In this document: in pieces, positions 28,887 to 50,177 of the stretch
Position numbering within the stretch: position 1 is the stretch's first letter
Layout: every line of letters begins with the position of its first letter
Source of the DNA: a bacterium UBP11_UBA4055
GTDB taxonomy: Bacteria > UBA4055
DNA: 64,000 nucleotides
Reading direction: 5' to 3'
Assembly: GCA_002382735.1 (NCBI GenBank)
Contig: DFZN01000059.1
Span: forward strand, 1-64,000
Program-made: the position numbers and the translations under genes
Notes under the pieces: model-generated
What the model saw: the letters and a program-made list of their open reading frames with translations, nothing else
Told to the model about the DNA's origin: nothing
Database searches by the model: none

Positions 28887-29425
28887 TTTTCCACTCCTTC
28901 CGTAAATATGTCGTTCCCGTAAATGTCGTTCGCGACAATGCACGGAAAATTTTCAACTTCGAGCTTTCTGACAGCTTCATGACCGAGTTCTTCAAAAGCA
29001 ATAACTTCGCTGGACTTTACTGATCTCGAAATAACCACTGCCGCGCCGCCGACCGCTACAAGATAAACAGCTCTCCTTCTGACCATCGATTCGACCACGG
29101 ATTTATCCCTTGGGCCTTTTCCGATCGTTGCTTTCAATCCCTTTTCGAGAAGCTGCGGCGTGTAGGTGTCCATTCTGTAGCTCGAAGTCGGCCCTGCCGA
29201 GCCGATCGGTTTCCCTTCCGGTGCAGGAGCCGGTCCTGTATAATAAATTATCTGACCTTTAAGTTCAAAAGGCAGAGGTTCATCTTTTATGATCTTGTAT
29301 ATAAATCTCTTGTGAGCCTCGTCGCGCATCGCATAAACCGTTCCGGTAATAAAGACCCTGTCGCCTGTCCTCATGCTTGTAATGTCTTTGAGTTTTAATG
29401 GAGTATTTATGTAATGCGTTTTCAT
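28874..29425 (-). CDS. fumB: Class I (Fe-S) fumarate hydratase, beta subunit
   Basis: Matches the C-terminal domain of FumA/TtdB (ITGTVYAMRDEAHKR..., GPTSSYRMD, VAVGGAAV). Confidence 0.8.
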   Translation of the reverse strand: MKTHYINTPLKLKDITSMRTGDRVFITGTVYAMRDEAHKRFIYKIIKDEPLPFELKGQIIYYTGPAPAPEGKPIGSAGPTSSYRMDTYTPQLLEKGLKATIGKGPRDKSVVESMVRRRAVYLVAVGGAAVVISRSVKSSEVIAFEELGHEAVRKLEVENFPCIVANDIYGNDIFTEGVEKWKK

Positions 29426-29435
29426 TTTGCTTACC

Positions 29436-30284
29436 TTAAAGCGTTACCGTTCTGTGACGGTTGGCGTGGCACTGGATGTTAACGGCTACAGGCAGGCAGG
29501 CTATATGGCACGGCTCGACGAGGATGTGCACAGCAAGAGCGGTCACATTTCCGCCCAGCCCCTGAGGGCCTATTCCCGTCCGGTTGATATCTTCTAAGAT
29601 ATCGCTTTCGACCTTGGCCCAGTTCCTGTCGGTGCTCGGTTTGCCTATGTCTCTCAGTAGTGCAATCTTTGAAAGTATCGCGCTCCTTTCAAGATTTCCG
29701 CCTACGCCGATCCCCACGATTATGGGCGGGCAGGGTTTTCCGCCGCCCAAAACAACTTTCTCGAGAACGAATTTTTTTATCTCTTTAAGGCCGTCCGAAG
29801 CTCTGAGCATCCTGACTTCGCTCATGTTCTCGGCTCCGCTGCCTTTCGGCATCATCGTGATCTCCAGCTTTTTCCCCGATACTATCCTTGTATGTATCAC
29901 AGCGGGAGTATTGTCTTTAGTGTTTATCCTCTTGAAAACAGGGTCTTTTATCAGGGACTTTCTCAGACAACCTTCGGAATAGCCCTGCCTGACCCCTTCG
30001 TTAAGGGCTTCGTAGAAATTCCCTCCCGTTATGTGAACATCCTGACCGATCCTGACAAACAGGACCGCGACGCCGGTATCCTGACAGACGGCCATTCTCT
30101 CCTTTGCCGCCAGATCGTAATTCTCCAGTATTACCGAAAGGATCTCTTTTCCTGTTTCCGATTCTTCGATCTCAGAAAATTTTCTGATGCTGTCTTTGAG
30201 GTCTTCACCTACAAAATAATTGGCATCCATGCAGAGTTTTTTTACAGCGGCCGTTACTTCTCTGGATTTGATCTCTCTTCTCAC
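29436..30284 (-). CDS. fumA: Class I (Fe-S) fumarate hydratase, alpha subunit
   Basis: The CQDTGVAV cluster-ligand motif, plus a GIGPQGLGG motif. A two-subunit architecture as in Thermotoga and archaea. Confidence 0.8.
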   Translation of the reverse strand: MRREIKSREVTAAVKKLCMDANYFVGEDLKDSIRKFSEIEESETGKEILSVILENYDLAAKERMAVCQDTGVAVLFVRIGQDVHITGGNFYEALNEGVRQGYSEGCLRKSLIKDPVFKRINTKDNTPAVIHTRIVSGKKLEITMMPKGSGAENMSEVRMLRASDGLKEIKKFVLEKVVLGGGKPCPPIIVGIGVGGNLERSAILSKIALLRDIGKPSTDRNWAKVESDILEDINRTGIGPQGLGGNVTALAVHILVEPCHIACLPVAVNIQCHANRHRTVTL

Positions 30285-32472: not shown

Positions 32473-33378
32473 ATGCCTATCACAAAACTTGAACAGATGT
32501 TCGAGATCCTCAAATCAAAACCAAAGAAAAGACTTGTCGCGGCATATGCTGTTGATGCTCACACGATCGAAGCAGTTAATGCTGCAGTTGAACTTGGAAT
32601 AATCGAAGCGACTCTAGTCGGAACCCGCGCAGAAATAGAAAAAGTCTGCAAATCTGAAGGAATTGATGTCAACAAATTCCGGATAGTAGAAGAAAGCGAT
32701 GAGATGAAAGCGACCATGAAAGCAGTTTCTCTGATAAACGAGGGAAAAGCAGATTTTATAATGAAAGGCCTGGTCAGCTCTGATAAATACATGAGAGCGA
32801 TCCTCAACAAGGAACAGGGACTTCTGCCTCCAAAAGCTATTTTGAGCCATGTAACAGTTATCGAAGTCCCGACTTACCATAAGCTTATAACGGTAGGCGA
32901 TGTGGCTATTATTCCCGCTCCCGACCTGTCCCAAAAGGTCGCGATCACGAACTATGTCATAAATACGGCTCACGCTCTTGGGATTGAGAAACCTAAGGTC
33001 GCTATGATCGCTGCCACCGAGCAGATGTCGGTCGGTATGCCGGCGGTCGTTGATGCGGCGATAATATCAAAAATGTGCGACCGCGGTCAGATAAAGAATG
33101 CTTTAGTTGATGGTCCTTTGGCGCTTGATGTGGCTCTTGACGAGGAGAGCGTTAAGATCAAAAAACTGGTGAGTTCTGTAGCAGGCGATGCCGACTGCCT
33201 GGTTTTCCCGAACATCGAGTCCGGAAATGTGTTCTTCAAGACCTGCACCAAACTTGCCGGAGGCGAACTTGCCGCACTGGTAGTCGGAGCTAAATGCCCC
33301 GCAGTTCTTACATCGAGAGGCGACAGCGCAAAGACAAAGACATATTCTATCGCGCTTGCATGCATGATGGTGAAATAA
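32473..33378 (+). CDS. ptb: Phosphate butyryltransferase
   Basis: A roughly 300-aa PTA/PTB-fold protein aligned along its length with Ptb (KRLVAAYAVD..., FIMKG, SHV..IEV, NISGN-like region). Confidence 0.8.
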   Translation: MPITKLEQMFEILKSKPKKRLVAAYAVDAHTIEAVNAAVELGIIEATLVGTRAEIEKVCKSEGIDVNKFRIVEESDEMKATMKAVSLINEGKADFIMKGLVSSDKYMRAILNKEQGLLPPKAILSHVTVIEVPTYHKLITVGDVAIIPAPDLSQKVAITNYVINTAHALGIEKPKVAMIAATEQMSVGMPAVVDAAIISKMCDRGQIKNALVDGPLALDVALDEESVKIKKLVSSVAGDADCLVFPNIESGNVFFKTCTKLAGGELAALVVGAKCPAVLTSRGDSAKTKTYSIALACMMVK

Positions 33379-33404
33379 ATTTGAAAATAAATAAGGGAGA
33401 GGAA

Positions 33405-34481
33405 ATGCAAATTAACAGGATCCTGGCAATAAACCCGGGCTCAACATCAACAAAGATCGCAGTTTATGACGGTGAAAAACTCGTGTTTCTGAAAAATATC
33501 AAGCACTCAGTGGATGATCTCGCGCCTTTCAAAAAAATTATTGACCAGTATGATTTCAGAAAAGAAGTGATACTTAAAGAGCTCAAGGACGCAGAAATTG
33601 AATTGGATAAGATCAAGATCGTGGTCGGCAGAGGCGGACTGGTCAAACCTGTGCCCTCGGGAGTTTTCAAAGTGAACGAGCAGATGAAAGCGGATATAAA
33701 GAGCAGCAACAAGGACCACGCTTCGAATCTCGGATGTTTCATAGCGGAAGATATTGCCCGGTCACTTAAGAACGGAGCCATAGCCGTAATAGCCGATCCG
33801 GTAGTTGTTGATGAGTTGGACGATGTTGCAAGAATAGCCGGCCATCCTCTGTTTAAAAGAGTGTCAATATTTCACGCCCTGAACCAGAAAGCCGTAGCAA
33901 GAAGATATGCTAAGAGCGTGAACAAAAAATACGAAGAAGTGAATGTGATCGTCGCACACCTCGGCGGAGGAATTTCGGTAGGCGCGCACAGAAAAGGAAG
34001 GGTAGTCGATGTGAACCAGGCTCTTGACGGCGAAGGACCTTTCAGCCCAGAAAGAAGCGGGACACTTCCCGCCGGCGATGTCTGCGCAATGGCTTTCAGC
34101 GGAAAATACACTCATGAGGAAATGAAGCTGATGTTCAAGGGCAAAGGCGGATTCGCGGCATATCTCGGTACAAATGATGCCTATGAAGTGGAAAAAAGAT
34201 GCCTCGCAGGAGACAAAGAAGCAATAAAGATACATGACGCTCTGGTCTATCAGGTCGCAAAATCCATCGGAGAACTTTCAACTGTACTTAAAGGTGAAGT
34301 TGACGCCATCATTCTTACGGGCGGGATAGCTTTTAACCCCGATTTCAACAAACAGATCGAGGAAAGAACTGCTTGGATCGCTCCGGTAGTCGTTTATCCC
34401 GGAGAAGATGAAATGGGCGCTCTTGCAAGTAACGGGCTGATGGTCATCAATAAAGAAGTGGAACCTATTGACTATAAATGA
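33405..34481 (+). CDS. buk: Butyrate kinase
   Basis: ILAINPGSTSTKIAVYDG is the ASKHA N-terminal motif. VAHLGGGISV and ILTGGIAFN are also present. The start is ATG 33405 with SD AAGGGAGAGG; the ORF-track start is further upstream. Confidence 0.9.
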   Translation: MQINRILAINPGSTSTKIAVYDGEKLVFLKNIKHSVDDLAPFKKIIDQYDFRKEVILKELKDAEIELDKIKIVVGRGGLVKPVPSGVFKVNEQMKADIKSSNKDHASNLGCFIAEDIARSLKNGAIAVIADPVVVDELDDVARIAGHPLFKRVSIFHALNQKAVARRYAKSVNKKYEEVNVIVAHLGGGISVGAHRKGRVVDVNQALDGEGPFSPERSGTLPAGDVCAMAFSGKYTHEEMKLMFKGKGGFAAYLGTNDAYEVEKRCLAGDKEAIKIHDALVYQVAKSIGELSTVLKGEVDAIILTGGIAFNPDFNKQIEERTAWIAPVVVYPGEDEMGALASNGLMVINKEVEPIDYK

Positions 34482-34526
34482 TTTTAAGATCAGACTTTTT
34501 ATGCCCCGGAATCCGGGGCTTTTTTA

Positions 34527-37500
34527 TTACCGCACGGCGAGCTTGAAATTCGCCCAGTAATAAGGGTGAGGATCGAAGTATGTCCTCACATCCCGTTTTG
34601 CCTGAGCGAGTGCTTCAGGCACAGGGAGGCCGGCCGCGACATTCCTGAAATAGCGCTTCATCAGAACAGAAGCTGCCAAGTCGTCCGTGCGCCATTTGCT
34701 TGAAATGACGCTCTTTGCGCCGGCTTCAAAGAAGGCGGCCGTCAGGTCGAAGTGTGAATAATATTCATCTCCCGACCTTCCGCCGGTATCGCATCCCGAC
34801 AGGATGACCGTTTTACCGTTCATATCGGATTGGCTTATCTCTTTCCAGTCAGTCTTGCCGTCGTTATTGTCGTCGGCCGAAAGCTGAATGTAGCTCGACC
34901 TTCCTGAAGCCGCGAGGGAGTCTTTTTTCAGAACGAAACTGTGTACGGGAAGGTGGATCATTCCGTACTGTTCTGCGGCGGCCGATCTTAAAAGCGATTC
35001 CGTCGCATCCGTCCCAGTGACGAGTTTTGTATTGTTCAGAAAATCCGACAACGATCCTGCTTCCCTTTTTGCGAAAACAAGGTCGCTTTCGGCAGTAAAA
35101 GGGTCAAATAAAGATAATGCATGAGTGGTCATGTCGGATTCAGGGAATTTTTTTCCGGATGATAATCTGTCTGTCTCAGTCAGGCTGAATCTGTCGCACA
35201 GGAACATTTTTCCGTCGTATAAGGCGTCAAAGGGATAGTTTTTGAGGCTTCCGGTGGAATATATTATCAGGTTCGTTATTCCGGACAGATTGTCTGTTGC
35301 TTCTTTGACGAATATCCTTTCATAGACTTTTTTTGATGCGCTTAAAAATTCCCCCTTTGATTCGATATTTGCCGGCAGATCCCCGAATTCTTTTGTTATG
35401 GAAAGTCCGAAAGACACCACCTTATTTCGAGTAATGACAACAGTGATCCCTTCCTTCCCGTGAGGCTGGAGTATGAGCAGCGCAGTTTTATTATCGAGCG
35501 ATGCCTGTATTTCTCCGATGCCGGATGTATTTTCATCTTTCGACGATATTTTTGGTGAAAGGGAAAAATATTTCAGATCGTTCGATCTTATCAGCCTGTC
35601 ACGGGCGCTCATTTCCGAAACAGCTTCATCGATTTTTGAATCCTTAAGCAGCAGGTATATTTTTTTCTCATAACCCTTAAGTATGACCGGCATCTGATCT
35701 GAAGGAAGCTGATTTACACTGCGGCTGACGAGACTGTCGGCTTTTTCTGTCAGCTTATCCAGGATCGAAAGAGCCGTCTCAGGCGATCTTTTTTCGTTAA
35801 GCCCGGCCAGGCTGAGCGCGGACTCGAGGAACACATCGCTAAATCCTGACTTTTCTGAAAGTTCCAGGCTTTTTTCAATGTAAACCATACCTGAGTCCGT
35901 TCTGTTCAGGGCAAGTAACGATGAGCCTTTGCCGTAAAGTGCTCTGGCCGTAAAATAACCGTCCCCGGCATCTTTTGAAAGTCCGATGCAATTTGAGTAG
36001 CTTATAAGAGCACTGTCAGGCATATTTTTAAGATCAAGAGCTATCTCGCCCCTGTAAAACTCCGCTGATATCACGGCCTGAACATTATCTGTCTTGAGTG
36101 CCAGTTCGATGCTTTTTGAAAGATTCTTTTGCGCGCCTGTAACATCATTCTCGAGTATCATAATCTTGGCCAAGTTCACTCTTGCTGTGCTTTCAGTGAA
36201 CTCATCTGAATTCTCTATCGTTTTCTCGAGCGCTTTATAGGAATAAGTCCTTGCGGCGGGAATATTATTGAGTTTTACCTCTACCAGGCTGCGGGTATTG
36301 TATATTCTCATTTTCTCGCCGTCGTCCGCTGCGCTTTTTTCTGCCAGCGCGAGATATTTCAGCGCGGAAGAAAGCCTGTCGGTATAATAACAAACATCAG
36401 CTATACTTATATAAACAGGTACTTTCCGCGCTTCGCTGTCAAAATACTCCAGAGATTCAAAAAAAAGCTCTTCGGCTTTGGAGTATTCCGGTATTTTCAT
36501 ATAGCACAGCCCCGCCGACACAAGAAGTTCGCCGAAGGACTCCGCGCTCACATCTTCGAAAAGTTCAAGGTTGCTGTTTATCGAGTTGTAAACTGACAGT
36601 GCGGAATCCGTCTCGTTCGCCCTGTAATAGCTTACCATGATGTTCCTGAGAGAATTGAACAGCAGTTCGCTCTCTTTTGCGCCTGCTTCATCCGGAAGAA
36701 TATCTAGTTCTCCCGAGCTGAGAAGGCCTGTTCTTTCAAGGTATTTCCTTTTGTACTCGATACTTCTTTTATGATCGCCTTTGTACGAATATATCACAGA
36801 AAGCATATCGAAGACCGCATTTTTATCCTCATCCTGAGCTGAAGGATCGGAAATTATCATATTCTGGAACTCAATACTTTTGTCGTAATCCTTATTCCTG
36901 AAATAATCCTTCGACACGGAATCGTAAGCCTGTATCTTCTCTTTGTCGAGTGAATTATCTTCAGCGTATTTTATAAGCTCAAACCCGTAACTTACAGCCC
37001 TTTTATAGTCTTTGATCTTAGAAAGAGAACTTATGAGTGTTTTAAGTATGTTCAGTTCCTGTTTGTCGCCGACATTCCTTGCCATCGCGAGAGCCTGTAT
37101 AAAATGTACGGCCGCTTTTTCATAGACCCTGCTGTTGTAATATCTTACTGCGTCCATAAGTGAACTTCTGAGGTTGGATGAGGCGAATTCCTTCTGCTCT
37201 TCTTTGTCCATTCCCGAAAGGCCGAAGACAGTGCATTCTATCCCGCTCTCCTTAATGATCGCAGCAATACTCTTTTCCGCTGCTTCTGTCCGGAGTTTCT
37301 CAGCCAGCACGGCCGCGTTCCCGTCTGCACTGTCCGTGCACATAATGACCGTCTGCACGCCGGCGAATATCATGCTGTTGGCCATTATAAGCTTTTCCAT
37401 ACAGTCCTTTCCTGTCTCGCCTGTTAAAACGGCATATGCGGGTATTTTGTACTTCAGAATATCTTTAACCCTGATAGTGTTGCCTCCGAATGACAGGGAC

Positions 37501-40500
37501 TTTTCAAGCGCGTTCACTGCACCTGACCCTACAGGATCGTCAAAGTAAATGATACCGCCGTTCTCGAATGCGGGAGCCATGTCTTCGCTTTTAACCCTTA
37601 TCTCCGATGCTTTCTTGAACTCGGAATAGTTGATATTGGCGTTCTCCGTAACAGTCTTTAAGCTCCTGACGGTAGGAATAAGAGTCACTATCAGGTGGTC
37701 AGGAATATATCCCGAGCTCATTGAGTGACCCGCGAACGAACCGTTGTCAGGATCCGGTATTATGAAAAGGTGTTCAGTTTCTTCAAGCTCGCTCGAGAAT
37801 ATCTCATAGATCTTTTCAGCCTCGCCGGGCGCGGTTTCAGCGAATCTGGTATATCCTGCCCTCCTCAGAAAATAAAGGTCTCTGTCAGGCATCGAGTAAA
37901 TGCTCAGAACAGCTTTGTATTCCCCCGTTATCTCATCAAGGGCATCTTCGTCTATGTCCTCTATGCTGACGAACTGAAGCAGCCTCTCATCGTTCGATCT
38001 TTTTATCTGGCTGAATATCTCATCAAGCTCTTTTTCATAAAAATCAGCCTGTTTTTCGTATTCTTCAATAGTTTTTGCATATTTTACGGGATCTTTATTC
38101 CTCATAATTTCCGCATTCTGCCTGTAACGGATTATCTCTTCGTTGTTGAACCTGATCTTTTTAATATGGATCTGATGGAGCTGTTCTTTATAGTCGATAT
38201 ACCTGCTGGAGTAATAATTGAGAAGGATCCTGCTTTTATACCTTTCGGCGAAGTTCATAGCGGCGAACATATCGTTCTTTTTTAAATATCCCGATATCAG
38301 CCTGTCATAAAGAGGTCTTATGTCTTCTCTCCAGCCGGTCACGAGCTCATAATCCGCGGTAGAAGGAAGATATTCCGAGAGAAGTTTTTCTGATCCTGCC
38401 CAGTATTCGAGCTTTCGATCAGGTTCAGATGCTATGTCGCCCGCCCTAAGCAGATATCTCCATTTAAGAAGTTTATCACGCGTGAGGTCTGAATATGCCC
38501 TTCCGTTCACAAAAACCTTAATAGAACGCTCAAGGTCGCCGCTTTCGTGAAGAGCTGCGGCAAGGTTGAACAGTATCGCCGCGGAGATCCTGTTCTTCCG
38601 TTCGGACGATCTTTTTACGGCTGATATGACAGAGTCAGCAGCCGTCAGGTCCCTTATTGATCTGTCAAGATATTTGAAAGCCTGATATTTTTCTGCAGGC
38701 TGTCCCGTGATCAGAGTTTTGAACAGCGAGTAATTCATGACACCTTTAAGGTTCAGATTCTCTGCCCTGCTGAAAACATCCGAGGCTGTCTTTGAGACCG
38801 AAAGGACTGTCGTATCGGACGCTGCGGAGGAAAGACCGGATAATTTCATTATTTGTGATCCGCTCAGCATAGCCTTCAGGATATTATTCTCGTTCTCCAG
38901 TGCGGCACCGTAGAGCTCAAGTTCAAGGCAGGCTTTTTTCGAATTCTCGAACCTCTTTACGCTCTCTTCCCAGTTCTTTCTGTAATATTCAACGATACCG
39001 AGCCTGTTCTCTATCAGGCTGAGCGCTAGTCTGTTTCCCTTTTTTCTGAACACTTCGGCTTTATTTTTGAGATATTCGCTGACTTTGTTGAAGTCTTTTA
39101 TGAAATGATAGTTCGACGCCTGCATGGCGTATAAGAGCGCAAGTTCGTCCGTTCCTTCAAATCCTTCTGAATACTGCGAACCTATGACCAGATCCAGCTT
39201 CCATACCGGGATATCAAGTCCCAGAAAATTCAGTACTATCATGTTATTTCTGGTTCTTTCATCAGTAAAATCCGGCTCGTTGTCAAATATTTCATCTATG
39301 ATCTTTGCTGAGGCTGTATATTCCTGATCGACAAGCTTCGCGAAGGCGCTGTTCCTCTTTATCAGGCTGACCGCCTCAGGATTGTCCTCGCTTTTCAGCT
39401 TGAGAATTATCTCGGAATACCTGTTGAAAGCTTCGTCACCGCCTATCATGTCGCCCTCCTTATCCTCTTTAGTGAGATAAAGAAGCGCCGTTCTCATTGA
39501 TACTCTAAGCTCGCCTTTCCTGTCGTTGATATTCCCGTACAGCTCAAGCGCTTTGTCATAATATTCGACTGCAGCGTCATCATCGGCGGTGAACATGCAA
39601 TGTCCCGTCCGTTCATAGATCATCGCTTTCTGCAGAGAGGACGAAAATTCATATCCGCCGTTTATGACTTCCAGATAATAGAAAAGAGCCTGCTTCCTGG
39701 CGTATTCACCCATATTATAATAATTGTTGGCCAGATTGAGCTTCATTTTCATTTCAAGTTCCCTGTCGCTTTCTTTCTGACAGAGGATAAGGCCTTTTCC
39801 GAGAAGGGTTATAGCGGTCTCCGTATGGTCTGTATCCGTATCTTCGATAATATTGACTGTTTCAAGAATAAATTTGAACGGTCCGGTTATGTAGTCCAGC
39901 GTTTTTAGAAAAAAGTTCCTGTCATCACCGTCCGACTCCTCCTTCATCCTGATCAGATGAAGAGCCTCGTGGCAGAATGAAAGTGTGAGATAGGCATGCT
40001 TAAGGCCGCTGTCGAGTTCGAGTGCTCTGTTCAGGTAATTCACGGCTTCGTTCATGTCCCTTTTTACCGCACCTTTGAGCGAGTAAGAGTAGCCCATCGC
40101 ATAATTCAAATACGCATCGTTGGTGTTCCTGTTGTATAGATTTGAAAAGAACCTGATCGCTTCATCCGTTTTGTTGAGGTTTGAGTACGAGTCAGCTATA
40201 CCTCTGATGATCTCTGCGTTCCTGTTGTCCAGTTCATAGGCTGTTGTGTAGGTTAGAAGTGCGTTGTCGTAAAGCTTGCGGGAGTTGAATTTCTCTGCTC
40301 GTTCCAGATATATTTCAGAGAGCTTTATTCCTGCGGCGATCGAATAGAGGTCATAGTCGATCCCTCTATAACTGGCCGTCATATATTTCAGCAGGCCTTC
40401 CGATTCGTCCTCATAACCGTTTTCTGCCAGAATTTCGGAAAGTTTCAGATCTGCCCGGGCGGAAAATCTCTTCAGCGTAACATTATCGGGTCTTTTAACA

Positions 40501-42224
40501 TAATACTTCTTAACTTCCCTATAAGCTGAAGCTCTATCCTCGAAGTTCGCTTTGATATCACCGTCCTTAAGAGCGGCGTAAGACCTGATCTCCTCAGAGA
40601 TACTTTCATTCGTGATTATGTTGTAGATCCTGTTTCTTATCGTACCGGTCCGCTCAGATAATTCGAAGTAGGAACTTATATACCTTTCCCGGTCTTCAGG
40701 ACTGCCTGCCTGCCTGACGGATATGTCAAGCATGCTTTCCGAGGCAGTCGCGTTCCCTTCACCCAAGGTCGAAAGTGAGTGGCTGAACAGGCTTTCAGGA
40801 TCATCTGTCCCGTCCGCATTCGTTCTGCACCTCAAAAAATAGCTTCCCGCCGTTGTGTATCTTCCGAGAAAGAAATATATCCTCCCGATCTTGAGGTAAA
40901 TGCTGTTCAGAGCGTCTTTCGAGCTGTACTTTTCTTCCAGAGAATTTAAGTATCTGATATATTCGTCTATCTCGTATCCGTAAACATTTTCGGGGATATT
41001 TCTTCTCTTTAATTCAACGCTGATCCTTTTTATTTCAGCCTGAGAGGATATGATCTCGTCGTCCGCGTACCTGCTTATGATGATCCTGTATATGGATTCA
41101 GCCTGCGCATATTTTTTCTGGATCTCATATATTTCCGCTATCCTGAAATATACTTCAGCGCGGGCGTCGTTACTGCCGCTTTGGAATGAGATCGTCCTGT
41201 TGTATGACAGAAGCGCGCTGCTCAGAAGTTCGCCGTACTGAGTACCGGAAGAACCTGTTATGGCGGAAAGTGCTGATTTCGCCTTGTATTCGTCAAAAAG
41301 CCTCTCCGACAGTTCAGCCTGAGCGATAAAATCTTTGAGATCGGGGATTATTCCTTCGTTCCCGCATGACCATATATCGCTGCTGCCCATCCTGTCCGAG
41401 ATAAAACAGATCCTGCCTTCGGGCGTAACGACCGGATCTTTCGACGAATATGATTCGGGAGTCAGCTGCATCGGGTCGGAATAGTATTCCCCGTCCTTAT
41501 TGATTCTGTAAAGAACGGAATTGTCCTTTATATCAAGCAGCAGGTCGCCGTTGGTATCGCCGGTTATTGCGGAATAGACAATATATGAGCCGTCATGCGG
41601 AGCGCTCAACCCTGTTATGATCTTTGTACCGAAGGTAGCCTGCACCGGCTCGGATAATTTCCCTTTCTCAAGTCTGGAAACATAAATATTGGAAAATCCG
41701 TAAATATCTCCTGAAGCCGAATAGATAATATCTCTGCCCGACAGCAAGGCTTTTTCTCCTATATCTGAACCTGTGAATGAAGGCTTTTTCCCGGATCTTT
41801 TTATTACACCCAGCTTCCCGCCGGAAGTGAAATACAAGTCTGACCCGTTCAGGAATGGACTTTTTTCCGCACCGACCGAGTGATAAAGCAGTCTTTGCGA
41901 ACCGTTATCTTCAAGCTCGTAAATATTGCCGTGAATGTCCGTTTCGTCCGAGATCATTAATAGTTTTTTGCCGTAAAATACAGGATATTCGTTCGATGGC
42001 TGCGTAGTTATGCGGGTAACTTTTTCTGTTTTCAGGTCTTTTTTGAACACATCGAAATTCCCGTACCTGTCGGAAGCGAAATAGATTTCATTTGAGTTTT
42101 TTACTGCCAAAGAAGTTTCCGCCGAAGGTTCGGTCGTTATCTGAACAGCCTCATAACTTTCTGTATCGATGCCTGAAAGCAGAGTGACAAGGGTGGCCAG
42201 AAGTATTATGAGTTTTTTCCCCAT
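34527..42224 (-). CDS. Giant secreted TPR/CHAT-domain protein (2565 aa): signal peptide, PD40/TolB-like propeller, TPR arrays, a degenerate CHAT-like domain, more TPRs, and a C-terminal CHAT peptidase domain
   Basis: N-terminal signal peptide MGKKLIILLATLVTLLSG. PD40-like repeats (YFASDRYGNFDVF, YVSRLEKGK, ICFISDRMGSSDIWS). Many TPR-like helical repeats. The C-terminal CHAT has HLPVHSF...ILSGCDTG...PHPYYWANFKLAV, giving a His/Cys dyad and the terminal hPyyWAxF signature. The central CHAT-like segment (AGHSMSSGYIPDH...AVLTGETGKD) has Glu in place of the catalytic Cys. Confidence 0.8.
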   Translation of the reverse strand: MGKKLIILLATLVTLLSGIDTESYEAVQITTEPSAETSLAVKNSNEIYFASDRYGNFDVFKKDLKTEKVTRITTQPSNEYPVFYGKKLLMISDETDIHGNIYELEDNGSQRLLYHSVGAEKSPFLNGSDLYFTSGGKLGVIKRSGKKPSFTGSDIGEKALLSGRDIIYSASGDIYGFSNIYVSRLEKGKLSEPVQATFGTKIITGLSAPHDGSYIVYSAITGDTNGDLLLDIKDNSVLYRINKDGEYYSDPMQLTPESYSSKDPVVTPEGRICFISDRMGSSDIWSCGNEGIIPDLKDFIAQAELSERLFDEYKAKSALSAITGSSGTQYGELLSSALLSYNRTISFQSGSNDARAEVYFRIAEIYEIQKKYAQAESIYRIIISRYADDEIISSQAEIKRISVELKRRNIPENVYGYEIDEYIRYLNSLEEKYSSKDALNSIYLKIGRIYFFLGRYTTAGSYFLRCRTNADGTDDPESLFSHSLSTLGEGNATASESMLDISVRQAGSPEDRERYISSYFELSERTGTIRNRIYNIITNESISEEIRSYAALKDGDIKANFEDRASAYREVKKYYVKRPDNVTLKRFSARADLKLSEILAENGYEDESEGLLKYMTASYRGIDYDLYSIAAGIKLSEIYLERAEKFNSRKLYDNALLTYTTAYELDNRNAEIIRGIADSYSNLNKTDEAIRFFSNLYNRNTNDAYLNYAMGYSYSLKGAVKRDMNEAVNYLNRALELDSGLKHAYLTLSFCHEALHLIRMKEESDGDDRNFFLKTLDYITGPFKFILETVNIIEDTDTDHTETAITLLGKGLILCQKESDRELEMKMKLNLANNYYNMGEYARKQALFYYLEVINGGYEFSSSLQKAMIYERTGHCMFTADDDAAVEYYDKALELYGNINDRKGELRVSMRTALLYLTKEDKEGDMIGGDEAFNRYSEIILKLKSEDNPEAVSLIKRNSAFAKLVDQEYTASAKIIDEIFDNEPDFTDERTRNNMIVLNFLGLDIPVWKLDLVIGSQYSEGFEGTDELALLYAMQASNYHFIKDFNKVSEYLKNKAEVFRKKGNRLALSLIENRLGIVEYYRKNWEESVKRFENSKKACLELELYGAALENENNILKAMLSGSQIMKLSGLSSAASDTTVLSVSKTASDVFSRAENLNLKGVMNYSLFKTLITGQPAEKYQAFKYLDRSIRDLTAADSVISAVKRSSERKNRISAAILFNLAAALHESGDLERSIKVFVNGRAYSDLTRDKLLKWRYLLRAGDIASEPDRKLEYWAGSEKLLSEYLPSTADYELVTGWREDIRPLYDRLISGYLKKNDMFAAMNFAERYKSRILLNYYSSRYIDYKEQLHQIHIKKIRFNNEEIIRYRQNAEIMRNKDPVKYAKTIEEYEKQADFYEKELDEIFSQIKRSNDERLLQFVSIEDIDEDALDEITGEYKAVLSIYSMPDRDLYFLRRAGYTRFAETAPGEAEKIYEIFSSELEETEHLFIIPDPDNGSFAGHSMSSGYIPDHLIVTLIPTVRSLKTVTENANINYSEFKKASEIRVKSEDMAPAFENGGIIYFDDPVGSGAVNALEKSLSFGGNTIRVKDILKYKIPAYAVLTGETGKDCMEKLIMANSMIFAGVQTVIMCTDSADGNAAVLAEKLRTEAAEKSIAAIIKESGIECTVFGLSGMDKEEQKEFASSNLRSSLMDAVRYYNSRVYEKAAVHFIQALAMARNVGDKQELNILKTLISSLSKIKDYKRAVSYGFELIKYAEDNSLDKEKIQAYDSVSKDYFRNKDYDKSIEFQNMIISDPSAQDEDKNAVFDMLSVIYSYKGDHKRSIEYKRKYLERTGLLSSGELDILPDEAGAKESELLFNSLRNIMVSYYRANETDSALSVYNSINSNLELFEDVSAESFGELLVSAGLCYMKIPEYSKAEELFFESLEYFDSEARKVPVYISIADVCYYTDRLSSALKYLALAEKSAADDGEKMRIYNTRSLVEVKLNNIPAARTYSYKALEKTIENSDEFTESTARVNLAKIMILENDVTGAQKNLSKSIELALKTDNVQAVISAEFYRGEIALDLKNMPDSALISYSNCIGLSKDAGDGYFTARALYGKGSSLLALNRTDSGMVYIEKSLELSEKSGFSDVFLESALSLAGLNEKRSPETALSILDKLTEKADSLVSRSVNQLPSDQMPVILKGYEKKIYLLLKDSKIDEAVSEMSARDRLIRSNDLKYFSLSPKISSKDENTSGIGEIQASLDNKTALLILQPHGKEGITVVITRNKVVSFGLSITKEFGDLPANIESKGEFLSASKKVYERIFVKEATDNLSGITNLIIYSTGSLKNYPFDALYDGKMFLCDRFSLTETDRLSSGKKFPESDMTTHALSLFDPFTAESDLVFAKREAGSLSDFLNNTKLVTGTDATESLLRSAAAEQYGMIHLPVHSFVLKKDSLAASGRSSYIQLSADDNNDGKTDWKEISQSDMNGKTVILSGCDTGGRSGDEYYSHFDLTAAFFEAGAKSVISSKWRTDDLAASVLMKRYFRNVAAGLPVPEALAQAKRDVRTYFDPHPYYWANFKLAVR

Positions 42225-42233: not shown

Positions 42234-44867
42234 TTACAGAAAGTTCTCGATATTATTTTTTAGTTTGGCGATAGACTCGATATTATTATTCAGTTTTTCC
42301 TTTTCCTTGCTGATAACAGCCTCAGGCGCATTCGAAACGAACTGCTCATTTGACAGTTTCTTGTTTATGCCCGTATTTATCCCTTCAAGCCTCGCGATCT
42401 CTTTTTCGATCTTTTCTTTTTCTGCACCGAGGTCGATTACGCCTTCGAGCGGTATGAAAAGCTCAATACCGTTAACCATCTCGGAAGCCGAGAGTTTAGG
42501 TTTGTCCGCATTTTTATCGAAAACTATATCCTCGATCTTAGCCAGGAACATTATAACCGAAGTGAACTTTTTAAGATCTTCGTTCTCTGTTTTAAGAACA
42601 AGCTTGAGCGTCTTTGAAGGAGGAATTGAATTTTCAGCCCTGATAACCCTTATCTTACTGATCAGTTCTTTTACTGTTTCCATAACCCCTTCGGATTCCT
42701 CGTCAATTAGCTTTCTGTCTGCTTCAGGTATGGATGAGAGCATGATAGAATCTCTTTCCTTCCTCTCTTCGATCCCGTGCCAGAGTTCTTCTGTAATGAA
42801 CGGCATGAACGGATGAAGCAGCCTGAGCGCAATATCAAAATTATAGAAAGCGTTCTCGAGAACAGATCTTCTTTCCTCTTCATTTTCGGACTGAAACCTT
42901 GATTTTGCCATCTCGATATACCAATCACAGAAATCGTTCCATAAAAATTCATAAATCGCTTTCAGTGCCTCGTTGAGCTGGAATGTTTTGAATTTTTCTT
43001 CAACTGTCTCTATCGTATGATTCAGCCTCGAATTGATCCATTTATCTTCGATGAAGTCAGTGTGACATATCTGTTTAACATCCGGATTTTTCTCTTTGTT
43101 CATCATCAGAAATCTTGCCGCGTTCCAGATCTTGTTCGCGAAACTTCGGCCTATCTCACACTTGTCTGTCGAGAAAAGAATGTCGTTTCCTACAGGTGTC
43201 AGCCTGATCATAGTGAACCTCAATGCATCAGCGCCGTACTCTTTTATAACATTCAGCGGATCAGGTGAGTTACCGAGAGATTTAGACATTTTTCTGCCCT
43301 TTTCGTCCCTTACCATTCCGTTGAAATAAACATCTCTGAAAGGAATTTCATGCTTATATTCCATTCCTGCTATAATCATCCTTGCAACCCAAGGAAAAAG
43401 AATATCGGGTCCTGTTATGAGAATGTTTGTCGGATAGAAATAGTCCTGCTCCTCTTGGGTTCTGAAAACCTCGTAAGGCCAGATCCAGCTTGAAGCCCAT
43501 GTGTCGAGAACATCATTGTCCTGATGAATATGATCGGATGATCCGCATTTTATACATTTGTCAGGTTTAGAAGATTCGCACATTTTTACGGTTTCGCATC
43601 CTTTGTTTGAGCAGTAATAGATCGGTATTCTATGTCCCCACCATAGTTGGCGAGATAAACACCAGTCTTGAATATTGTTAAGCCAGTGGTTGTATGTCTT
43701 TATCCACTTTTCGGGATGGAATTTTATAGTTCCGTTATTCACGACCTCGAGAGCAGGTTTTACAAGTTCGGACATTTTCAGGTACCACTGCTCCGACATC
43801 AGATACTCGATCGGCTCTTTCCCGCGCTGGCTCACGCTGAGCTGGTTTATATGCGGCTCTATCTTGTCGACAAGCCCGAGTTCCTGAAGTTCCGCAACGA
43901 CTTTCTTACGCGCTACGAATCTGTCTAAGCCTCTGAACCTTTCGGGTACATTGTCATTAAGTGTTGCGTTCGGGTTCATGATGTTTATGACCGCAAGCCC
44001 GTGCCTCTGCCCCACAAGATTATCGTTCGGGTCATGACCCGGCGTGATCTTGACGGCGCCCGTACCCTTTTCCGGATCGGCGTGCGTATCCGCTATGATC
44101 GGGATCTCGCGGCCGACGATCGGCAGTACCGCCGTCCTGCCGATCAGGTGATTAAGTCTGGCGTTGTCGGGATGAATCGCGACCGCCGTATCGCCGAACA
44201 TCGTCTCCGGCCTCGTAGTCGCTACTGTTACGAACTCGTTCGAGTCCTTGATCGGGTATTTAAAATACCACAGGTGTCCCTTATTCTCGATAAACTCGAC
44301 TTCCTCGTCAGAGATCACCGACATCGAGGCCGGGCACCAGTTAACCAGCCTGTATCCTTTGTAGATGAGACCTTTTTTATAAAGATCGACAAATGTGTCT
44401 ATAACGGCTTTATAATAGTCATCGTCCATGGTAAAACGCTCACGCTCCCAGTCGCATGCGCAGCCGAGTTTCTTGAGCTGCTGAATTATGATCCCGCCGT
44501 ATTTATCCTTCCACTCCTTCGCCTTAAGAAGAAATTCTTCCCTGCCCAGATCCTTTTTATCAATTCCCTGATCTTTAAGCATAGCCGTGACTTTTGATTC
44601 TGTAGCGATGGAAGCATGATCCGTTCCGGGCACCCAGCAGGTCTCGAACCCTTTAAGCTTATGGTATCTGATGAACACATCCTGAAGAGTATTATTGAGC
44701 ACATGGCCTATCGTAAGCATACCTGTAACATTCGGCGGCGGTATCACTATCGTGTAAGGTTTTTTATCTTTATTGACTTTGCTTTTGAAATAGCCCTTCT
44801 TCAGCCATTCCGCATAGATCCTGTCCTCTATCAGTGTAGGATCGTAGGTTTTGGATATTTCGCTCAT
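42234..44867 (-). CDS. valS: Valine--tRNA ligase
   Basis: HIGH-type GHVLNNT motif, KMSKS motif, conserved editing and anticodon-binding regions, and a C-terminal coiled coil. 877 aa. Confidence 0.95.
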   Translation of the reverse strand: MSEISKTYDPTLIEDRIYAEWLKKGYFKSKVNKDKKPYTIVIPPPNVTGMLTIGHVLNNTLQDVFIRYHKLKGFETCWVPGTDHASIATESKVTAMLKDQGIDKKDLGREEFLLKAKEWKDKYGGIIIQQLKKLGCACDWERERFTMDDDYYKAVIDTFVDLYKKGLIYKGYRLVNWCPASMSVISDEEVEFIENKGHLWYFKYPIKDSNEFVTVATTRPETMFGDTAVAIHPDNARLNHLIGRTAVLPIVGREIPIIADTHADPEKGTGAVKITPGHDPNDNLVGQRHGLAVINIMNPNATLNDNVPERFRGLDRFVARKKVVAELQELGLVDKIEPHINQLSVSQRGKEPIEYLMSEQWYLKMSELVKPALEVVNNGTIKFHPEKWIKTYNHWLNNIQDWCLSRQLWWGHRIPIYYCSNKGCETVKMCESSKPDKCIKCGSSDHIHQDNDVLDTWASSWIWPYEVFRTQEEQDYFYPTNILITGPDILFPWVARMIIAGMEYKHEIPFRDVYFNGMVRDEKGRKMSKSLGNSPDPLNVIKEYGADALRFTMIRLTPVGNDILFSTDKCEIGRSFANKIWNAARFLMMNKEKNPDVKQICHTDFIEDKWINSRLNHTIETVEEKFKTFQLNEALKAIYEFLWNDFCDWYIEMAKSRFQSENEEERRSVLENAFYNFDIALRLLHPFMPFITEELWHGIEERKERDSIMLSSIPEADRKLIDEESEGVMETVKELISKIRVIRAENSIPPSKTLKLVLKTENEDLKKFTSVIMFLAKIEDIVFDKNADKPKLSASEMVNGIELFIPLEGVIDLGAEKEKIEKEIARLEGINTGINKKLSNEQFVSNAPEAVISKEKEKLNNNIESIAKLKNNIENFL

Positions 44868-45120: not shown

Positions 45121-46647
45121 ATGGAAACGAACCGTCCGGAATATAGAATTGCAGGCTATTCTTTCCTGATCAGTAAATACGGCATTGATACATTTCCCCT
45201 TAAGCACATTTCGAAGATATCTCACCACAGTGAACGCCGTACCGTAATGAATGGTGAAGTAACGGAAGATATATATCCTCATAAGTACTGGCCGGGACAT
45301 GACACAAAAGACCATCTTGAGTTCGCTTTGAAATACGACGGCGTCGATCTTCTCTGCTTAAATTTAATTTTTGATGCAGCGGGCGAGAATGAGATACTCG
45401 ACTATATCGGATCGAAACCCACAGGAAAATATTCGCGCCGCATTTGGTTCTTTTATGAATTTTTCAAAGGTGTCCGGCTGCCTTTAGCAGACCTGGAAAG
45501 CGGAAATTATATAGAAGCTCTTGAGAGCGGACTCTATTACACTGTGTCTCCGGGAGCAAGAAGTCAGAGACACCGTGTCTTAAATAACCTTTTAGGTAAT
45601 AGGGATTTCTGCCCGACGGTCAGAAAAACTGAAAAGCTTAAAATATTCGAATCGGTAGAACTGAAGAAATTGTGCGAAAATGTTCTCCGGTCATATCCTC
45701 CTGAACTTATAAAAAGAGCCTTGAGTTATTTTTACAACAAAGAAACAAAATCATCTTTTGAGATCGAGAACATCAAACCCGGTTTTTCGAGAACGGAAAA
45801 ATTTATATCTCTGCTCGAATCAGCCGGACAGGAAGATTTTTGCAGTAAAGAAAAACTTATTGAGCTGCAGAACAGGACAGTTGATCCCAGATTCGCTGAC
45901 TCCGGCTTCCGTAGCTCACAGAACTATGTTGGACAGACCGTATCTTATCAGAAGGAGATCGTCCACTATATATCTCCCAAACCTGATGATCTGATCAGCA
46001 TGATGAAAGGCCTTGAAGCTGCTCACCTGAATATGATGAAAGGAAAAGTTCCCGCGGTAGTTCATGCAGGGATTATTTCATACGGATTTGTATTCCTGCA
46101 CCCTTTCGAAGACGGTAACGGAAGGATCCACAGGTTTCTGATCCATAATATCTTATCTATCAGGGGGCTTGTACCTGACGGGCTTATTTTTCCCGTATCT
46201 GCGGTAATATTAAAAAATCCTTCGGATTACAATGATTCTCTTGAGTCCTTCTCAAAAAAGATCATGAAGCTGACCGAATACAGCCTTGACGAAAAAGGAA
46301 TAATGACCGTTCTGAACAGCACGGATAAATTTTACAGATTCACCGATATGACAGTTCAGGCTGAATATCTTTATGACTTTGTTATCCGTACGATCGAAAA
46401 TGAACTTACCGAAGAACTGGACTTTCTTGTTAATTATGACCGTGCCAAAAATGCCGTTAAGGATATAATCGATATGCCGGACAGGCTTATAGATCTATTC
46501 ATTCAGTTATGCGTTCAAAATGAGGGCAGGATATCTTTCAGGAAAAGAAAAAATCACTTTGATTTCCTGACAGATGACGAACTTTCCGCTATGGAGGCAG
46601 CTGTCGGAGAAATATATAAATTGAAACTGTCATCGGAGGAGAAATGA
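45121..46647 (+). CDS. fic: Fic/Doc-family protein (AMPylation-type) with a long N-terminal domain
   Basis: The canonical Fic motif [14 protein letters not shown]. 508 aa. Confidence 0.85.
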
Positions 46648-47060
46648 AGTCATACAGAAAGGAATTGTGGTTCAGCACGACGCAGAGAAGGGAGTTTATC
46701 AATATTACGCATGAAGTTCAGAGATCGATAGACGAAAGCGGCATAAAAGAGGGGCTTGTGCTTGTCAACGCAATGCATATCACGGCTTCAGTTTTTATCA
46801 ACGACGACGAATCAGGGCTGCATCACGACTACGAAGTCTGGCTCGAAAAGCTCGCGCCCGAAAAACCGCACTCGCAGTACAGGCATAACGGCTATGAGGA
46901 CAATGCAGACGCTCACATGAAAAGACAGGTCATGGGCAGAGAGGTCGTCTGCGCCGTCACGAACGGGCAGCTGGATTTCGGACCGTGGGAGCAGATATTT
47001 TACGGGGAGTTCGACGGTAAGAGAAAGAAACGCGTGCTCGTTAAAGTGATCGGCGAATAG
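46644..47060 (+). CDS. YjbQ/UPF0047-family protein (secondary thiamine-phosphate synthase-like)
   Basis: The family pattern matches along the full length (NITHEV...[21 protein letters not shown]...[20 protein letters not shown]...[29 protein letters not shown]). Overlaps fic by 4 nt. Confidence 0.8.
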
Positions 47061-47335: not shown

Positions 47336-48319
47336 TTAAGGGTTTTTGAGAAATATAGTGTTTTCAAGCAGCAATGCAAGCAAAAATAAAAATATCGCCG
47401 GCAGAAGGAACAGATGATATTTTTCGTGGAACCGCTTGTATGATTTAATTTCGATCTTCGTTTTTTCCAGCTCGTCTATCTCTTTGTATATCTTGGCGAG
47501 TTTATCTTTATCGGTTGCTCTGTAGAATTTTCCGCCGGTAGTCGATGCGACCTTAGTCATCATCTCCTCGTCTATCTTGAACTCGACCTCGCGAAGCACA
47601 GTCTGGCCGAACGGCGTCTGGAAAGGGTACGGCGCTCTGGATCTGCCTATGCCGATGGTATAAATTTTCATTTCCATAGCCGAGGCAACTTCCGCCGCCG
47701 TTTCCGGGCTCACCTCGCCCTTGTTGTTGTCGCCGTCCGTCAAAAGTATTATGACCTTGCTCTTGGCGTCGCTGCCCTTCAGTCTGTTGACCGAGGTGAT
47801 GATGCCCGACCCTATCGCCGTCCCGTCCTCGATCACACCCGTCTTGATGTTGCGCGTCAGCTCGTTCAGTATCCCGTAATCCGTCGTGAGCGGGCACTGT
47901 GTATATGCTTCTCCCGCAAAAAGCACCATGCCTATCCTGTCGTTCTTTCGTCCGTTGATGAACTCCCGGGCAACATCAAGTGACGCCTCGAACCTGTTGG
48001 GCTGAAAATCCTGAGCGAGCATTGAGGTCGAGATGTCCAGCGCGAGCATGATGTCGATACCCTCGGTCGTGGTCTCGGACGACTCTGAAGTGGACTGAGG
48101 CCGTGCGAGCGCAAGGATCATCAGGGCGGCCGCGATGAACTTGAGCACATAAGGCGTTTCGATCAGCCTGACCCTCAAAGTCTTCTTTATGCCGGAAAAA
48201 GTTTCTGAGCCGGAAAATCTTATATACGCCCGTTTCTGCTTTATGAAATGGTATAACAGTGCGATAACAGGCACGAATAACAAATACAGATAATGAGGGT
48301 CGGCGAATTTGAATATCAT
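47336..48319 (-). CDS. BatA-like von Willebrand factor A domain membrane protein
   Basis: Two N-terminal TM helices, then a VWA domain with MIDAS residues (LALDISTSM...). C-terminal TM segment. Confidence 0.8.
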   Translation of the reverse strand: MIFKFADPHYLYLLFVPVIALLYHFIKQKRAYIRFSGSETFSGIKKTLRVRLIETPYVLKFIAAALMILALARPQSTSESSETTTEGIDIMLALDISTSMLAQDFQPNRFEASLDVAREFINGRKNDRIGMVLFAGEAYTQCPLTTDYGILNELTRNIKTGVIEDGTAIGSGIITSVNRLKGSDAKSKVIILLTDGDNNKGEVSPETAAEVASAMEMKIYTIGIGRSRAPYPFQTPFGQTVLREVEFKIDEEMMTKVASTTGGKFYRATDKDKLAKIYKEIDELEKTKIEIKSYKRFHEKYHLFLLPAIFLFLLALLLENTIFLKNP

Positions 48320-49287: not shown

Positions 49288-50171
49288 TTTTTCGTTTTCC
49301 TCTTTTTGAAAAATGCCACGAGCGGGTGAATGTAGGGTTTATTGATCTCCATGCTGATGCTTTCGACCTTATTCTTCCTGAACAGCTTCGACTTGAGCGC
49401 AGTTTTTTTATCTATATTGGCTTTAATTATCCCGCGGTTGGCTTTACTGCTCAGATCGACCAGCATAGTTTTGCCTGTTTCGTTGTCGAAGAACTCGTAC
49501 AGTCCTTTTTCGGGAAGTTCGCGCTCTCTTTTATCGTAAAGGTCTATAGCTATAAGATCGTGCTTTTTTGAAACTATCTGCATGCCCTTTTCGTAGCCGT
49601 CGTCCATAAAGTCGGATATCAAAAAAGAAATGGCTTTTTTCTTCTGTACATTGTTCAGATATTCGAGCGCGGTCTCGATTGAAGTGCCTGTAGAGGAAGC
49701 TTTGAAGAACAAAAGTTCCCTGATTATCCTGAACACATGACTTCTGCCTTTTTTGGGAGGTATGAACTTTTCTATCTTGTCGGAGAACAGGATCAGCCCG
49801 ACCTTATCGTTGTTCTTGACGGCCGAGAATGCGAGAAGGGCCGCGATCTCCGCAGCGATCTCTCTTTTGAAACTCTCTTCCGAGCCGAAACTGCCGCTCG
49901 CGGATATATCGACGACAAGCATGAGTATAAGCTCGCGCTCCTCTTCAAAAACCTTCACGAAAGGCTTTCTCATCCTCGCCGTCACATTCCAGTCAATAGA
50001 CCTTATGTCGTCTCCGTATGAATACTCCCGCACCTGCGAGAAATTCATCCCGCGTCCCTTGAATACGGAATGGTACTCTCCGCCGAAGAGCTCGTTGACA
50101 GCCTTACGGGTCTTGAGGTCGATGAACCTGACCTTTTTTAGTATTTCCTTCTGCTTTTCTCTTTCTTCCAT
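49284..50171 (-). CDS. DUF58-domain protein (MoxR partner)
   Basis: VREYSYGDDIRSIDW is the conserved DUF58 motif. A VWA-like fold follows. Confidence 0.8.
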   Translation of the reverse strand: MEEREKQKEILKKVRFIDLKTRKAVNELFGGEYHSVFKGRGMNFSQVREYSYGDDIRSIDWNVTARMRKPFVKVFEEERELILMLVVDISASGSFGSEESFKREIAAEIAALLAFSAVKNNDKVGLILFSDKIEKFIPPKKGRSHVFRIIRELLFFKASSTGTSIETALEYLNNVQKKKAISFLISDFMDDGYEKGMQIVSKKHDLIAIDLYDKRERELPEKGLYEFFDNETGKTMLVDLSSKANRGIIKANIDKKTALKSKLFRKNKVESISMEINKPYIHPLVAFFKKRKTKK

Positions 50172-50177
50172 AGCTGT

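Follow-up and report, generated by a model that had tools for sequence, protein, structure and literature searches.

The subject of this analysis is a giant gene on the minus strand of a 64,000-nucleotide stretch of DNA (positions 1 to 64,000 of contig DFZN01000059.1, assembly GCA_002382735.1, from the bacterium UBP11_UBA4055), the whole of which we call the window. The gene occupies positions 34527..42224 (7.7 kb) as one open reading frame (ORF) of 2565 codons that begins with ATG, contains no internal stop and ends in a stop codon at 34527-34529. We are highly confident of the architecture of its product, which runs from a predicted signal peptide through a beta-propeller and a TPR scaffold to a central CHAT module predicted to be catalytically dead, and then through a second TPR scaffold to a C-terminal CHAT module predicted to be live. 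Within the reach of our searches, the novel elements are this conserved giant layout, its spread over several lineages, and the coupling of the gene, in lineages other than that of the window, to genes for AsmA-like and YdbL-like proteins, often accompanied by SH3 and M48 genes.

A frame of such exceptional length, in which Pfam detects one CHAT domain only, might be suspected of arising from a sequencing error that joined at least two genes. Against this, the reading frame runs without a break, and the protein collection that we searched holds an identical protein (P0001) and another that is 92% identical (P0002), both encoded on contigs. The homologue search of this collection also returned 15 further full-length relatives of 2556-2664 aa, with 40-60% identity to the giant protein, and 110 protein clusters share its length and domain order. 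An artefact of fusion or frameshift is rejected on the intact frame, the database copies and the collinear relatives, and we consider it almost inconceivable; the single uninterrupted gene of the original prediction is retained.

The first 18 residues (42171..42224; this and all other domains of the protein are encoded on the minus strand) constitute a predicted Sec-type signal peptide. On manual inspection the N-terminus, MGKK-LIILLATLVTLL-SG, shows the n/h/c layout expected of such a signal; hydropathy reaches its maximum of 3.0 over residues 5-16, and no other segment of the protein resembles a transmembrane helix. The signal peptide had been predicted from the sequence, and it is supported by these criteria, judged by hand, and by the homologues in the protein-collection set, 29 out of 30 of which share an equivalent hydrophobic stretch at the N-terminus; P0028 alone departs from this, being extended N-terminally by a long segment, with a hydrophobic run from about residue 38. 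Distant homologues have AXA-type cleavage sites, and one (P0020) has a lipobox-like LFSC motif. Across the wider set of 110 giants, a strict hydropathy threshold is passed by 83, while most of the others are signal-peptide-like or have mis-called starts. Two genes elsewhere in the window bear on the cell envelope, one encoding a small outer membrane protein (OMP) of the beta-barrel type (7043-7537, minus strand) and the other a 649-aa protein of PKD, Big_9 and cadherin-like repeats (3477-5426, minus strand). Both point to a diderm envelope with surface proteins; the organism is taken to be diderm, and a periplasm expected, because the window encodes the OMP beta-barrel protein. We regard a periplasmic location for the giant protein as probable.

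The signal peptide is followed at residues 19-300 (41325..42170) by a six-bladed PD40/TolB-like beta-propeller, a fold that is typically periplasmic. When the N-terminal 310 aa are scanned alone, Pfam PD40 scores 24.3 bits against a cut-off of 20.9, and a cross-phylum family profile compared with PDB sequences matches TolB with an E-value of 2e-25. An AlphaFold2 (AF2) model of residues 19-300 has a pLDDT of 91 and a pTM of 0.89; its best Foldseek matches are TolB structures (4r40_C, 3iax_A and 2hqs_A, E ~1e-8, TMq 0.67-0.70), and it superposes on the six-bladed designed 'Pizza6' proteins with a TMt of ~0.75. The propeller of the original prediction is borne out by these results. TolB of the Tol-Pal system, the top match in both fold and profile, is likewise a periplasmic six-bladed PD40 propeller, but the giant protein scores only 22.9 bits against the TolB equivalog TIGR02800, for which the cut-off is 343.15, and the match is confined to residues 19-123, corresponding to propeller positions 264-371 of the 418-position model. 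Membership of TolB itself, which would need a full-length equivalog match covering both the N-terminal alpha/beta domain and the propeller, is rejected, and tol-pal genes are not found among the scanned neighbours of the giant gene. Judged by sequence and model, residues 19-300 are a propeller of TolB's superfamily, and not a TolB.

The long TPR arrays that had been predicted are present as two scaffolds, of ~1100 aa and ~560 aa, with matches to many Pfam TPR families. The first (residues 301-1394, 38043..41324) has matches to TPR_12, TPR_8, TPR_2, TPR_1, TPR_6 and TPR_19 between residues 356 and 902, carries motifs conserved family-wide along its whole length, and ends in a helical linker (~1300-1394) leading to the central module. 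The second (residues 1676-2237, 35514..37199) is defined by Pfam and the family profile; it matches TPR_MalT at 1977-2063 and Cohesin_load, a TPR-like family, at 2115-2165, and we read the latter match as generic TPR-like similarity. Positions 1768-2199 of the family profile match engineered TPR proteins, kinesin light chain and the TPRs of LGN.

The C-terminal module (residues 2238-2565, 34530..35513) is a CHAT domain, that is, of the caspase/separase fold, and its dyad is intact. Pfam CHAT (PF12770) matches residues 2301-2562 with 129.6 bits against a gathering threshold of 24 (E 2e-37), covering profile positions 8-286 of 289. The motifs HLPVHS, LSGCDTG and PHPYYWANF begin at residues 2424, 2475 and 2552, and the dyad comprises His2428 (codon 34941-34943) and Cys2478 (codon 34791-34793). 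Both of these residues, along with H2424, are invariant in the 16-sequence clade alignment, and the original assignment of an intact His/Cys dyad to this domain is sound.

The central module (residues 1395-1675, 37200..38042) is less easily recognised. A Pfam search had been named beforehand as the check that could overturn the claim of two CHAT domains, and it finds one only: residues 1330-1680 scanned alone give no CHAT match even at E<=10. The central and C-terminal modules do not match significantly by BLASTP, and hhalign, given only the shallow clade alignments of 16 sequences, was unsuccessful in global mode and reached no better than an E-value of 0.11 in local mode. A word-indexed homologue search with the 316-aa central segment (37095-38042, minus strand) was empty and missed even the identical P0001, which reflects the limit of a word index and is not evidence. 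The claim is rescued by profiles of distant orthologues, and it was only once these had been added that hhalign reached significance for the central module. The clade's central profile then aligns with the central modules of distant orthologues over 292 columns (Prob 98.8, E 7e-17) and with the C-terminal CHAT profile (Prob 93.2, E 3e-7). When the C-terminal CHATs from 29 homologues are combined into a hidden Markov model (HMM), it matches the central region of P0019 (E 3.5e-21), P0020 (7e-21) and P0018 (2e-17), and more weakly that of P0025 (4e-13) and P0017 (3e-4). Similarly, an HMM of the distant central modules matches the central regions of the Delongbacteria clade (for example P0017 1.6e-10, P0015 8e-8). 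The central module was also used as a profile in an exhaustive search, which retrieved 17,178 proteins at E<=1e-3, and because these are generic CHAT proteins its homology to CHAT is again confirmed. On profile comparison, therefore, the central module is truly of the CHAT fold but has diverged too far for Pfam to recognise it.

What the original prediction said of the dyad in this module needs rewording. It had proposed that Glu replaces the catalytic Cys in the motif VLTGETG (beginning at residue 1599; E1603, codon 37416-37418). In relatives, the residue at that position is D, G, F, L or a gap, and the alignment there is ambiguous, so that the CHAT fold can be kept while the Cys-to-Glu replacement, being alignment-dependent and not conserved, cannot. 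In the giant protein neither the His nor the Cys of the dyad is present at the aligned central positions; the Cys is missing in 23/23 aligned central modules, and the His is retained only in some distant lineages. The conserved trait is the absence of both dyad residues, and 'dyad lost' is the accurate wording. By sequence the module is a pseudo-protease, predicted to be catalytically dead.

This protein is no isolated case but belongs to a large family of collinear proteins. Counted over everything retrieved, the family comprises at least 110 clusters with proteins of 2400 aa or more, the relatives having 2.4-2.9 thousand residues. Many proteins of 2.4-2.9 thousand residues also occur among the best 150 of the 17,178 matches to the central profile, matched either centrally or C-terminally. 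Collinear full-length homologues share 40-92% identity in metagenome-assembled genomes (MAGs) of Delongbacteria and 17-23% in other phyla; the named members belong to Candidatus Delongbacteria, candidate division KSB1, Nitrospinaceae, Desulfobacterales and Thermodesulfobacteriota, and their annotations go no further than 'CHAT domain-containing' or 'TPR repeat' protein. When the cluster membership of 10 distant giants was inspected, two were named, both as candidate division KSB1. With each GTDB species represented by one genome, a scan using the clade alignment gave 15 loci; 11 of them lie in MAGs of Candidatus Delongbacteria, the best match (92%) among them, and the scan is uninformative on other phyla. 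The window itself very likely derives from Candidatus Delongbacteria. In the literature we found no publication describing the family, none combining a CHAT domain with PD40, and none linking CHAT to AsmA or DUF1318.

The two CHAT modules differ consistently across this family. At the C-terminus, the dyad His is kept in 102/110 giants and the Cys in 101/110; the central module is detectable by HMM in 56 of the 110, and in these the His is kept in 1/56 and the Cys in 0/56. That this asymmetry persists across proteins only 17-23% identical argues, at the level of sequence, for selection on the catalytic function of the C-terminal site, and also for the dead central module being an ancient feature that has been retained. 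In the Delongbacteria the giant gene also diverges faster than its neighbours, as seen in comparisons with L001, L003, L009, L015 and L020; against L001 the giant has 52-56% identity, compared with 84% for valS and 94% for yjbQ, BatA and buk.

The giant gene lies 9 bp from valS (42234..44867, minus strand), a spacing read directly from the sequence; valS is on the same strand, directly 5' of the giant gene, and its product matches the NCBIfam valine--tRNA ligase equivalog with 1148 bits. The only noteworthy promoter-like site precedes valS (44954-44925, minus strand) and none occurs inside the 9-bp gap, and valS is probably the first gene of a transcription unit in which the two are co-transcribed. 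On the other side, ptb-buk (32473-34481, plus strand) lies downstream of the giant gene and is convergent with it. The original prediction had these neighbours reversed, with valS downstream and ptb-buk upstream. The 45-bp gap between buk and the giant gene contains, according to a terminator scan, a GC-rich hairpin, GCCCCGGAATCCGGGGC (34503..34519, strand not assigned), which has 7 G-C pairs, with a T-run after it on the plus strand, and is probably a terminator shared by the two genes, its function being inferred from the sequence.

Adjacency to valS is a regular feature of the closer relatives. It is directly upstream in L001, L003, L008, L009, L011, L012, L014, L015 and L020, which are all the Delongbacteria loci at 43-93% identity for which upstream sequence exists, and in all closer Delongbacteria relatives the spacing is 9-10 bp; in the clade at 40% identity (L002/L018) valS is not upstream. 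Such adjacency is more suggestive of synteny within the lineage than of a link in function, and the placement suggests constitutive co-transcription of a housekeeping type.

Orthologues in other lineages have a different setting. In six loci (L005, L007, L023, L024, L025 and L027) a gene with AsmA, DUF748, YhdP or TamB_N-like similarity is followed by a DUF1318 gene and then by the giant gene (L023:3113-18242; L025:3687-17289; L027:239-14016; L024:2475-15833; L005:4227-16190; L007:4228-16166). These are six of the seven loci that are neither of Delongbacteria nor of the Nitrospinaceae type, and the seventh, L026, begins 190 bp before the gene. The AsmA-like proteins have 958-1357 aa and N-terminal transmembrane anchors. 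The DUF1318 proteins are of ~190 aa, with lipobox-like motifs, and combine a YdbL-like C-terminal half with an extra conserved N-terminal half, in which similarity to YnbE was not detected. The DUF1318 and giant genes either overlap by 4-29 bp or are spaced by 23-42 bp, and from this arrangement we take the giant orthologues in the six loci to be translationally coupled to the genes for the AsmA-like protein and the putative DUF1318 lipoprotein. Genes for SH3 and Peptidase_M48 proteins adjoin in 4/6 loci (L023, L024, L025 and L027), the M48 protein being closest to BepA but below the cut-off of the BepA model, and in L025 an additional 241-aa gene of no assigned family lies between the AsmA-like and DUF1318 genes.

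This combination recalls the ydbH-ynbE-ydbL operon of E. coli, which likewise pairs an AsmA-like gene with one of the YdbL (DUF1318) family. E. coli ydbL is annotated as 'DUF1318 domain-containing protein YdbL', and YdbL over its whole mature length aligns with the C-terminal half of the DUF1318 protein from L005 (E 3e-4). YdbH-YnbE forms an intermembrane phospholipid bridge, the assembly of which is modulated by YdbL (PMC11126948, PMC13464000). The analogy is incomplete, however, in that E. coli has no giant CHAT protein and the partner genes are not in the present window. We propose that in Delongbacteria the giant gene has moved behind valS.

The closest functional precedent is DdvA, an anti-sigma factor of M. 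xanthus, which is a periplasmic TPR-CHAT protein of solved structure (PDB 8ROT) with its dyad in a resting state, and for which signal-induced cleavage has been proposed (PMC11506125). It weakens the argument of the original prediction that CHAT proteins are normally cytoplasmic and a periplasmic one therefore unusual. DdvA differs from the giant protein in most other respects: it has 991 aa, a cytoplasmic zinc anti-sigma domain, one transmembrane helix and only one CHAT, and its partner is an extracytoplasmic function (ECF) sigma factor controlling defence genes, whereas the giant protein has a predicted signal peptide, a propeller and two TPR-CHAT units, one of them dead, and no sigma partner. 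Membership of a DdvA-like anti-sigma class is rejected, since the signal peptide leads into the propeller and there is no other transmembrane segment; sigma genes are not found among the scanned neighbours.

Two other CHAT systems were considered and rejected as homes for the giant protein. Csx29, the TPR-CHAT component of the type III-E CRISPR craspase (PDB 7Y9X, 7Y83, 7ZOQ), is cytoplasmic, of ~700 aa and bound to Cas7-11/gRAMP; the neighbours here are valS, Fic, yjbQ, the Bat operon, ptb and buk, with no cas genes among those scanned, and PADLOC returns no hit. Separase (Peptidase C50; PDB 5FC2, 5U1T, 7NJ0) is eukaryotic and nuclear or cytoplasmic, and the giant protein has no match to Pfam Peptidase_C50 (PF03568), although its distant orthologue P0019 scores 37.9 bits against a threshold of 27.8. 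Separase and craspase themselves have CHAT regions that are described as a pseudo-protease coupled to an active protease domain, which weakens the contention that such a pairing is exceptional; distinct here is that each of the two modules, dead and live, is a full CHAT unit and that ~560 aa of TPR lie between them. Both systems also illustrate the kind of control that may apply, separase being activated in mitosis by removal of securin, and craspase, which like SAVED-CHAT acts in immunity, being activated by target RNA.

In proposing how the giant protein might work, we envisage that a protein of ~290 kDa is exported by the Sec pathway into the periplasm of a diderm host, and that its layout reflects a duplicated TPR-CHAT unit set behind a propeller, with the first copy inactivated. 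It would be a latent cysteine endopeptidase, resting with its dyad misaligned until a ligand or partner switches it on; we propose latency because the characterised TPR-CHAT proteases (separase, craspase and DdvA) rest in this way. The propeller and the two TPR arrays would be sensing or docking surfaces for envelope partners, much as the TolB propeller binds the lipoprotein Pal, and the dead CHAT may regulate the live one or present substrates to it. Once active, the protease would cleave an envelope protein, either itself or a partner, and plausibly one within the AsmA-like/DUF1318 system where that operon exists. Homeostasis of the outer membrane or envelope is the most likely process, because orthologues are co-operonic with AsmA-like and DUF1318 genes, often with SH3 and M48 genes also. 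The periplasmic or envelope proteolytic switch of the original prediction is kept as the best reading, with added support from synteny in other phyla, and we hold a regulated protease acting in envelope homeostasis to be an evenly balanced proposition. A more specific version, in which the protein is a kind of 'periplasmic separase', a giant ligand-gated protease dedicated to the AsmA-like/YdbL-like lipid bridge or, more broadly, to outer membrane biogenesis, is decidedly speculative. On that version, cleavage of the DUF1318 lipoprotein, the AsmA-like protein or the protease itself would set the number or activity of bridges, the dead CHAT would be the allosteric or substrate-presenting half, the propeller would anchor the protein at the outer membrane or peptidoglycan, and the Delongbacteria gene would have been uncoupled from the operon and attached to valS.

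Several points weigh against the envelope-switch reading. The cleavage site of the giant protein (LSG/ID) is weak, and for that reason the signal sequence could possibly remain as an uncleaved signal anchor. A conserved dyad is not proof of catalysis, and for every family member the protease activity, the substrate and the localisation are inferred, while the role given to the pseudo-CHAT comes from analogy alone. The link to envelope lipids is transferred from orthologues that are 17-23% identical and may not hold here: a local HMM search finds AsmA-like and DUF1318 genes neither in the 64-kb window nor in the Delongbacteria flanks examined, where the SH3 and M48 partners are missing as well, and the AsmA, DUF1318, SH3 and M48 neighbours are also absent at the Nitrospinaceae-type loci L004 and L006. 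The original statement that no cognate partner sits nearby is thus true for the window, but it does not extend to the family, given the AsmA-like and DUF1318 partners at six orthologous loci in other lineages.

One alternative is that the protein is a non-catalytic periplasmic scaffold, a TPR and propeller platform or ruler for envelope complexes, in which the CHAT modules only bind and the dyad is vestigial or rarely used. We think this unlikely, for the C-terminal His and Cys are kept in ~92% of the 110 clusters when the same positions have been freely lost centrally, and the retention of one dyad alongside loss of the other speaks for purifying selection on catalysis. A different role, as an envelope sensor of immunity or conflict comparable to DdvA, craspase or SAVED-CHAT, which would answer periplasmic signals of invasion or damage with proteolysis, would be in keeping with the involvement of most characterised bacterial CHAT proteins in defence signalling, with the periplasmic position of DdvA and with the faster divergence of the giant from L001 than is seen in valS, yjbQ, BatA or buk. 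It sits poorly with the absence of any PADLOC hit and of any adjoining sigma/anti-sigma, transmembrane signalling or effector gene, and with a synteny of housekeeping genes that is stable across Delongbacteria; the layout is collinear over several lineages, unlike patchy defence islands, and the partners in other lineages are envelope-biogenesis and not defence genes. We consider such a sensor quite improbable.

Least favoured among the functional alternatives, and very unlikely in our view, is a fully secreted or cell-surface protein, whether an extracellular protease, an adhesin or a toxin. The signal peptide, very large size, quick divergence and lipobox-like LFSC of P0020 are all compatible with it, and some CHAT domains do occur in secreted TpsA-like proteins; yet Pfam detects no signal for translocation across the outer membrane, be it of type IX secretion (Por_Secre_tail), type I, type V or another system, no secretion-system genes adjoin, the C-terminus is the CHAT domain itself, and the nearest fold relative of the N-terminal domain is the periplasmic TolB. 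The envelope-located, regulated protease remains the reading that we prefer over all of these.

Proteases of the CHAT/caspase fold are familiar as intracellular switches under tight gating. DdvA is the only periplasmic CHAT example characterised so far, and a family of exported proteins of 2.4-2.9 thousand residues, each with one live and one dead CHAT as judged from their dyads, is unstudied. It offers a natural case of an inactivated/active CHAT pair within one chain. The regulation of phospholipid flow to the outer membrane of Gram-negative bacteria is an active question, for which a giant protease within the operon would be a testable candidate regulator; if the lipid-bridge version were true, no earlier case of bridge-like lipid transport under proteolytic regulation would precede it in bacteria. 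The value of the present window is more modest, being that of a well-supported family member without partner genes, from an uncultured phylum.

Beyond valS, the upstream side of the locus carries a Fic gene and yjbQ, both on the plus strand, and then a MoxR-DUF58-unknown-BatA operon. This operon, of the Bat/aerotolerance type (47336-51167, minus strand), encodes MoxR (AAA_3), a DUF58 protein, a 323-aa protein with no Pfam match and a BatA-VWA protein, and is kept upstream in the Delongbacteria loci L001, L003, L009 and L015. As a functional partner of the giant gene it is rejected, since variable genes of divergent orientation separate it from valS; in the non-Delongbacteria loci examined, the annotation of the 8-kb flanks shows no operon of this kind. 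The Fic-domain gene (45121-46647, plus strand, 508 aa) lies between yjbQ and valS, and the syntenic spot carries other cargo elsewhere, AAA_14/DUF4143 in L001 and DUF4160/DUF2442 in L003, which looks like a small variable insertion hotspot. The yjbQ gene (UPF0047) is found less than ~5 kb from the giant gene both in Delongbacteria (window 46644-47060, plus strand; L001:4793-5209; L003:4794-5210) and in the unrelated lineage of P0018 and P0019 (L005:17724-18137; L007:17048-17461). It is divergent from valS in the former and downstream, after an inositol-phosphatase gene, in the latter; this recurring proximity may be coincidence or old linkage. In L001, the locus of a 56%-identical relative, three extra genes absent from the window follow the giant gene at its 3' side on the same strand (L001:15708-17752), encoding a 354-aa protein with weak HEAT_2 similarity and proteins of 188 aa and 136 aa of no assigned family.

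Elsewhere in the window, GC-content falls to 0.35 between 24001 and 26443, against ~0.44 around it. This trough contains a DUF6036/DUF2204 nucleotidyltransferase-like ORF, an ORF with a DUF1016 N-terminal domain and a 182-aa partial N6_Mtase fragment, and is probably the decayed remnant of a restriction-modification system or mobile element. There are also two peaks, of which that at 28001-30000 (0.51) overlaps the malic enzyme and fumarate hydratase genes, while that at 18001-20000 (0.52) overlaps unannotated ORFs at 18215-19546 and 19833-21479.

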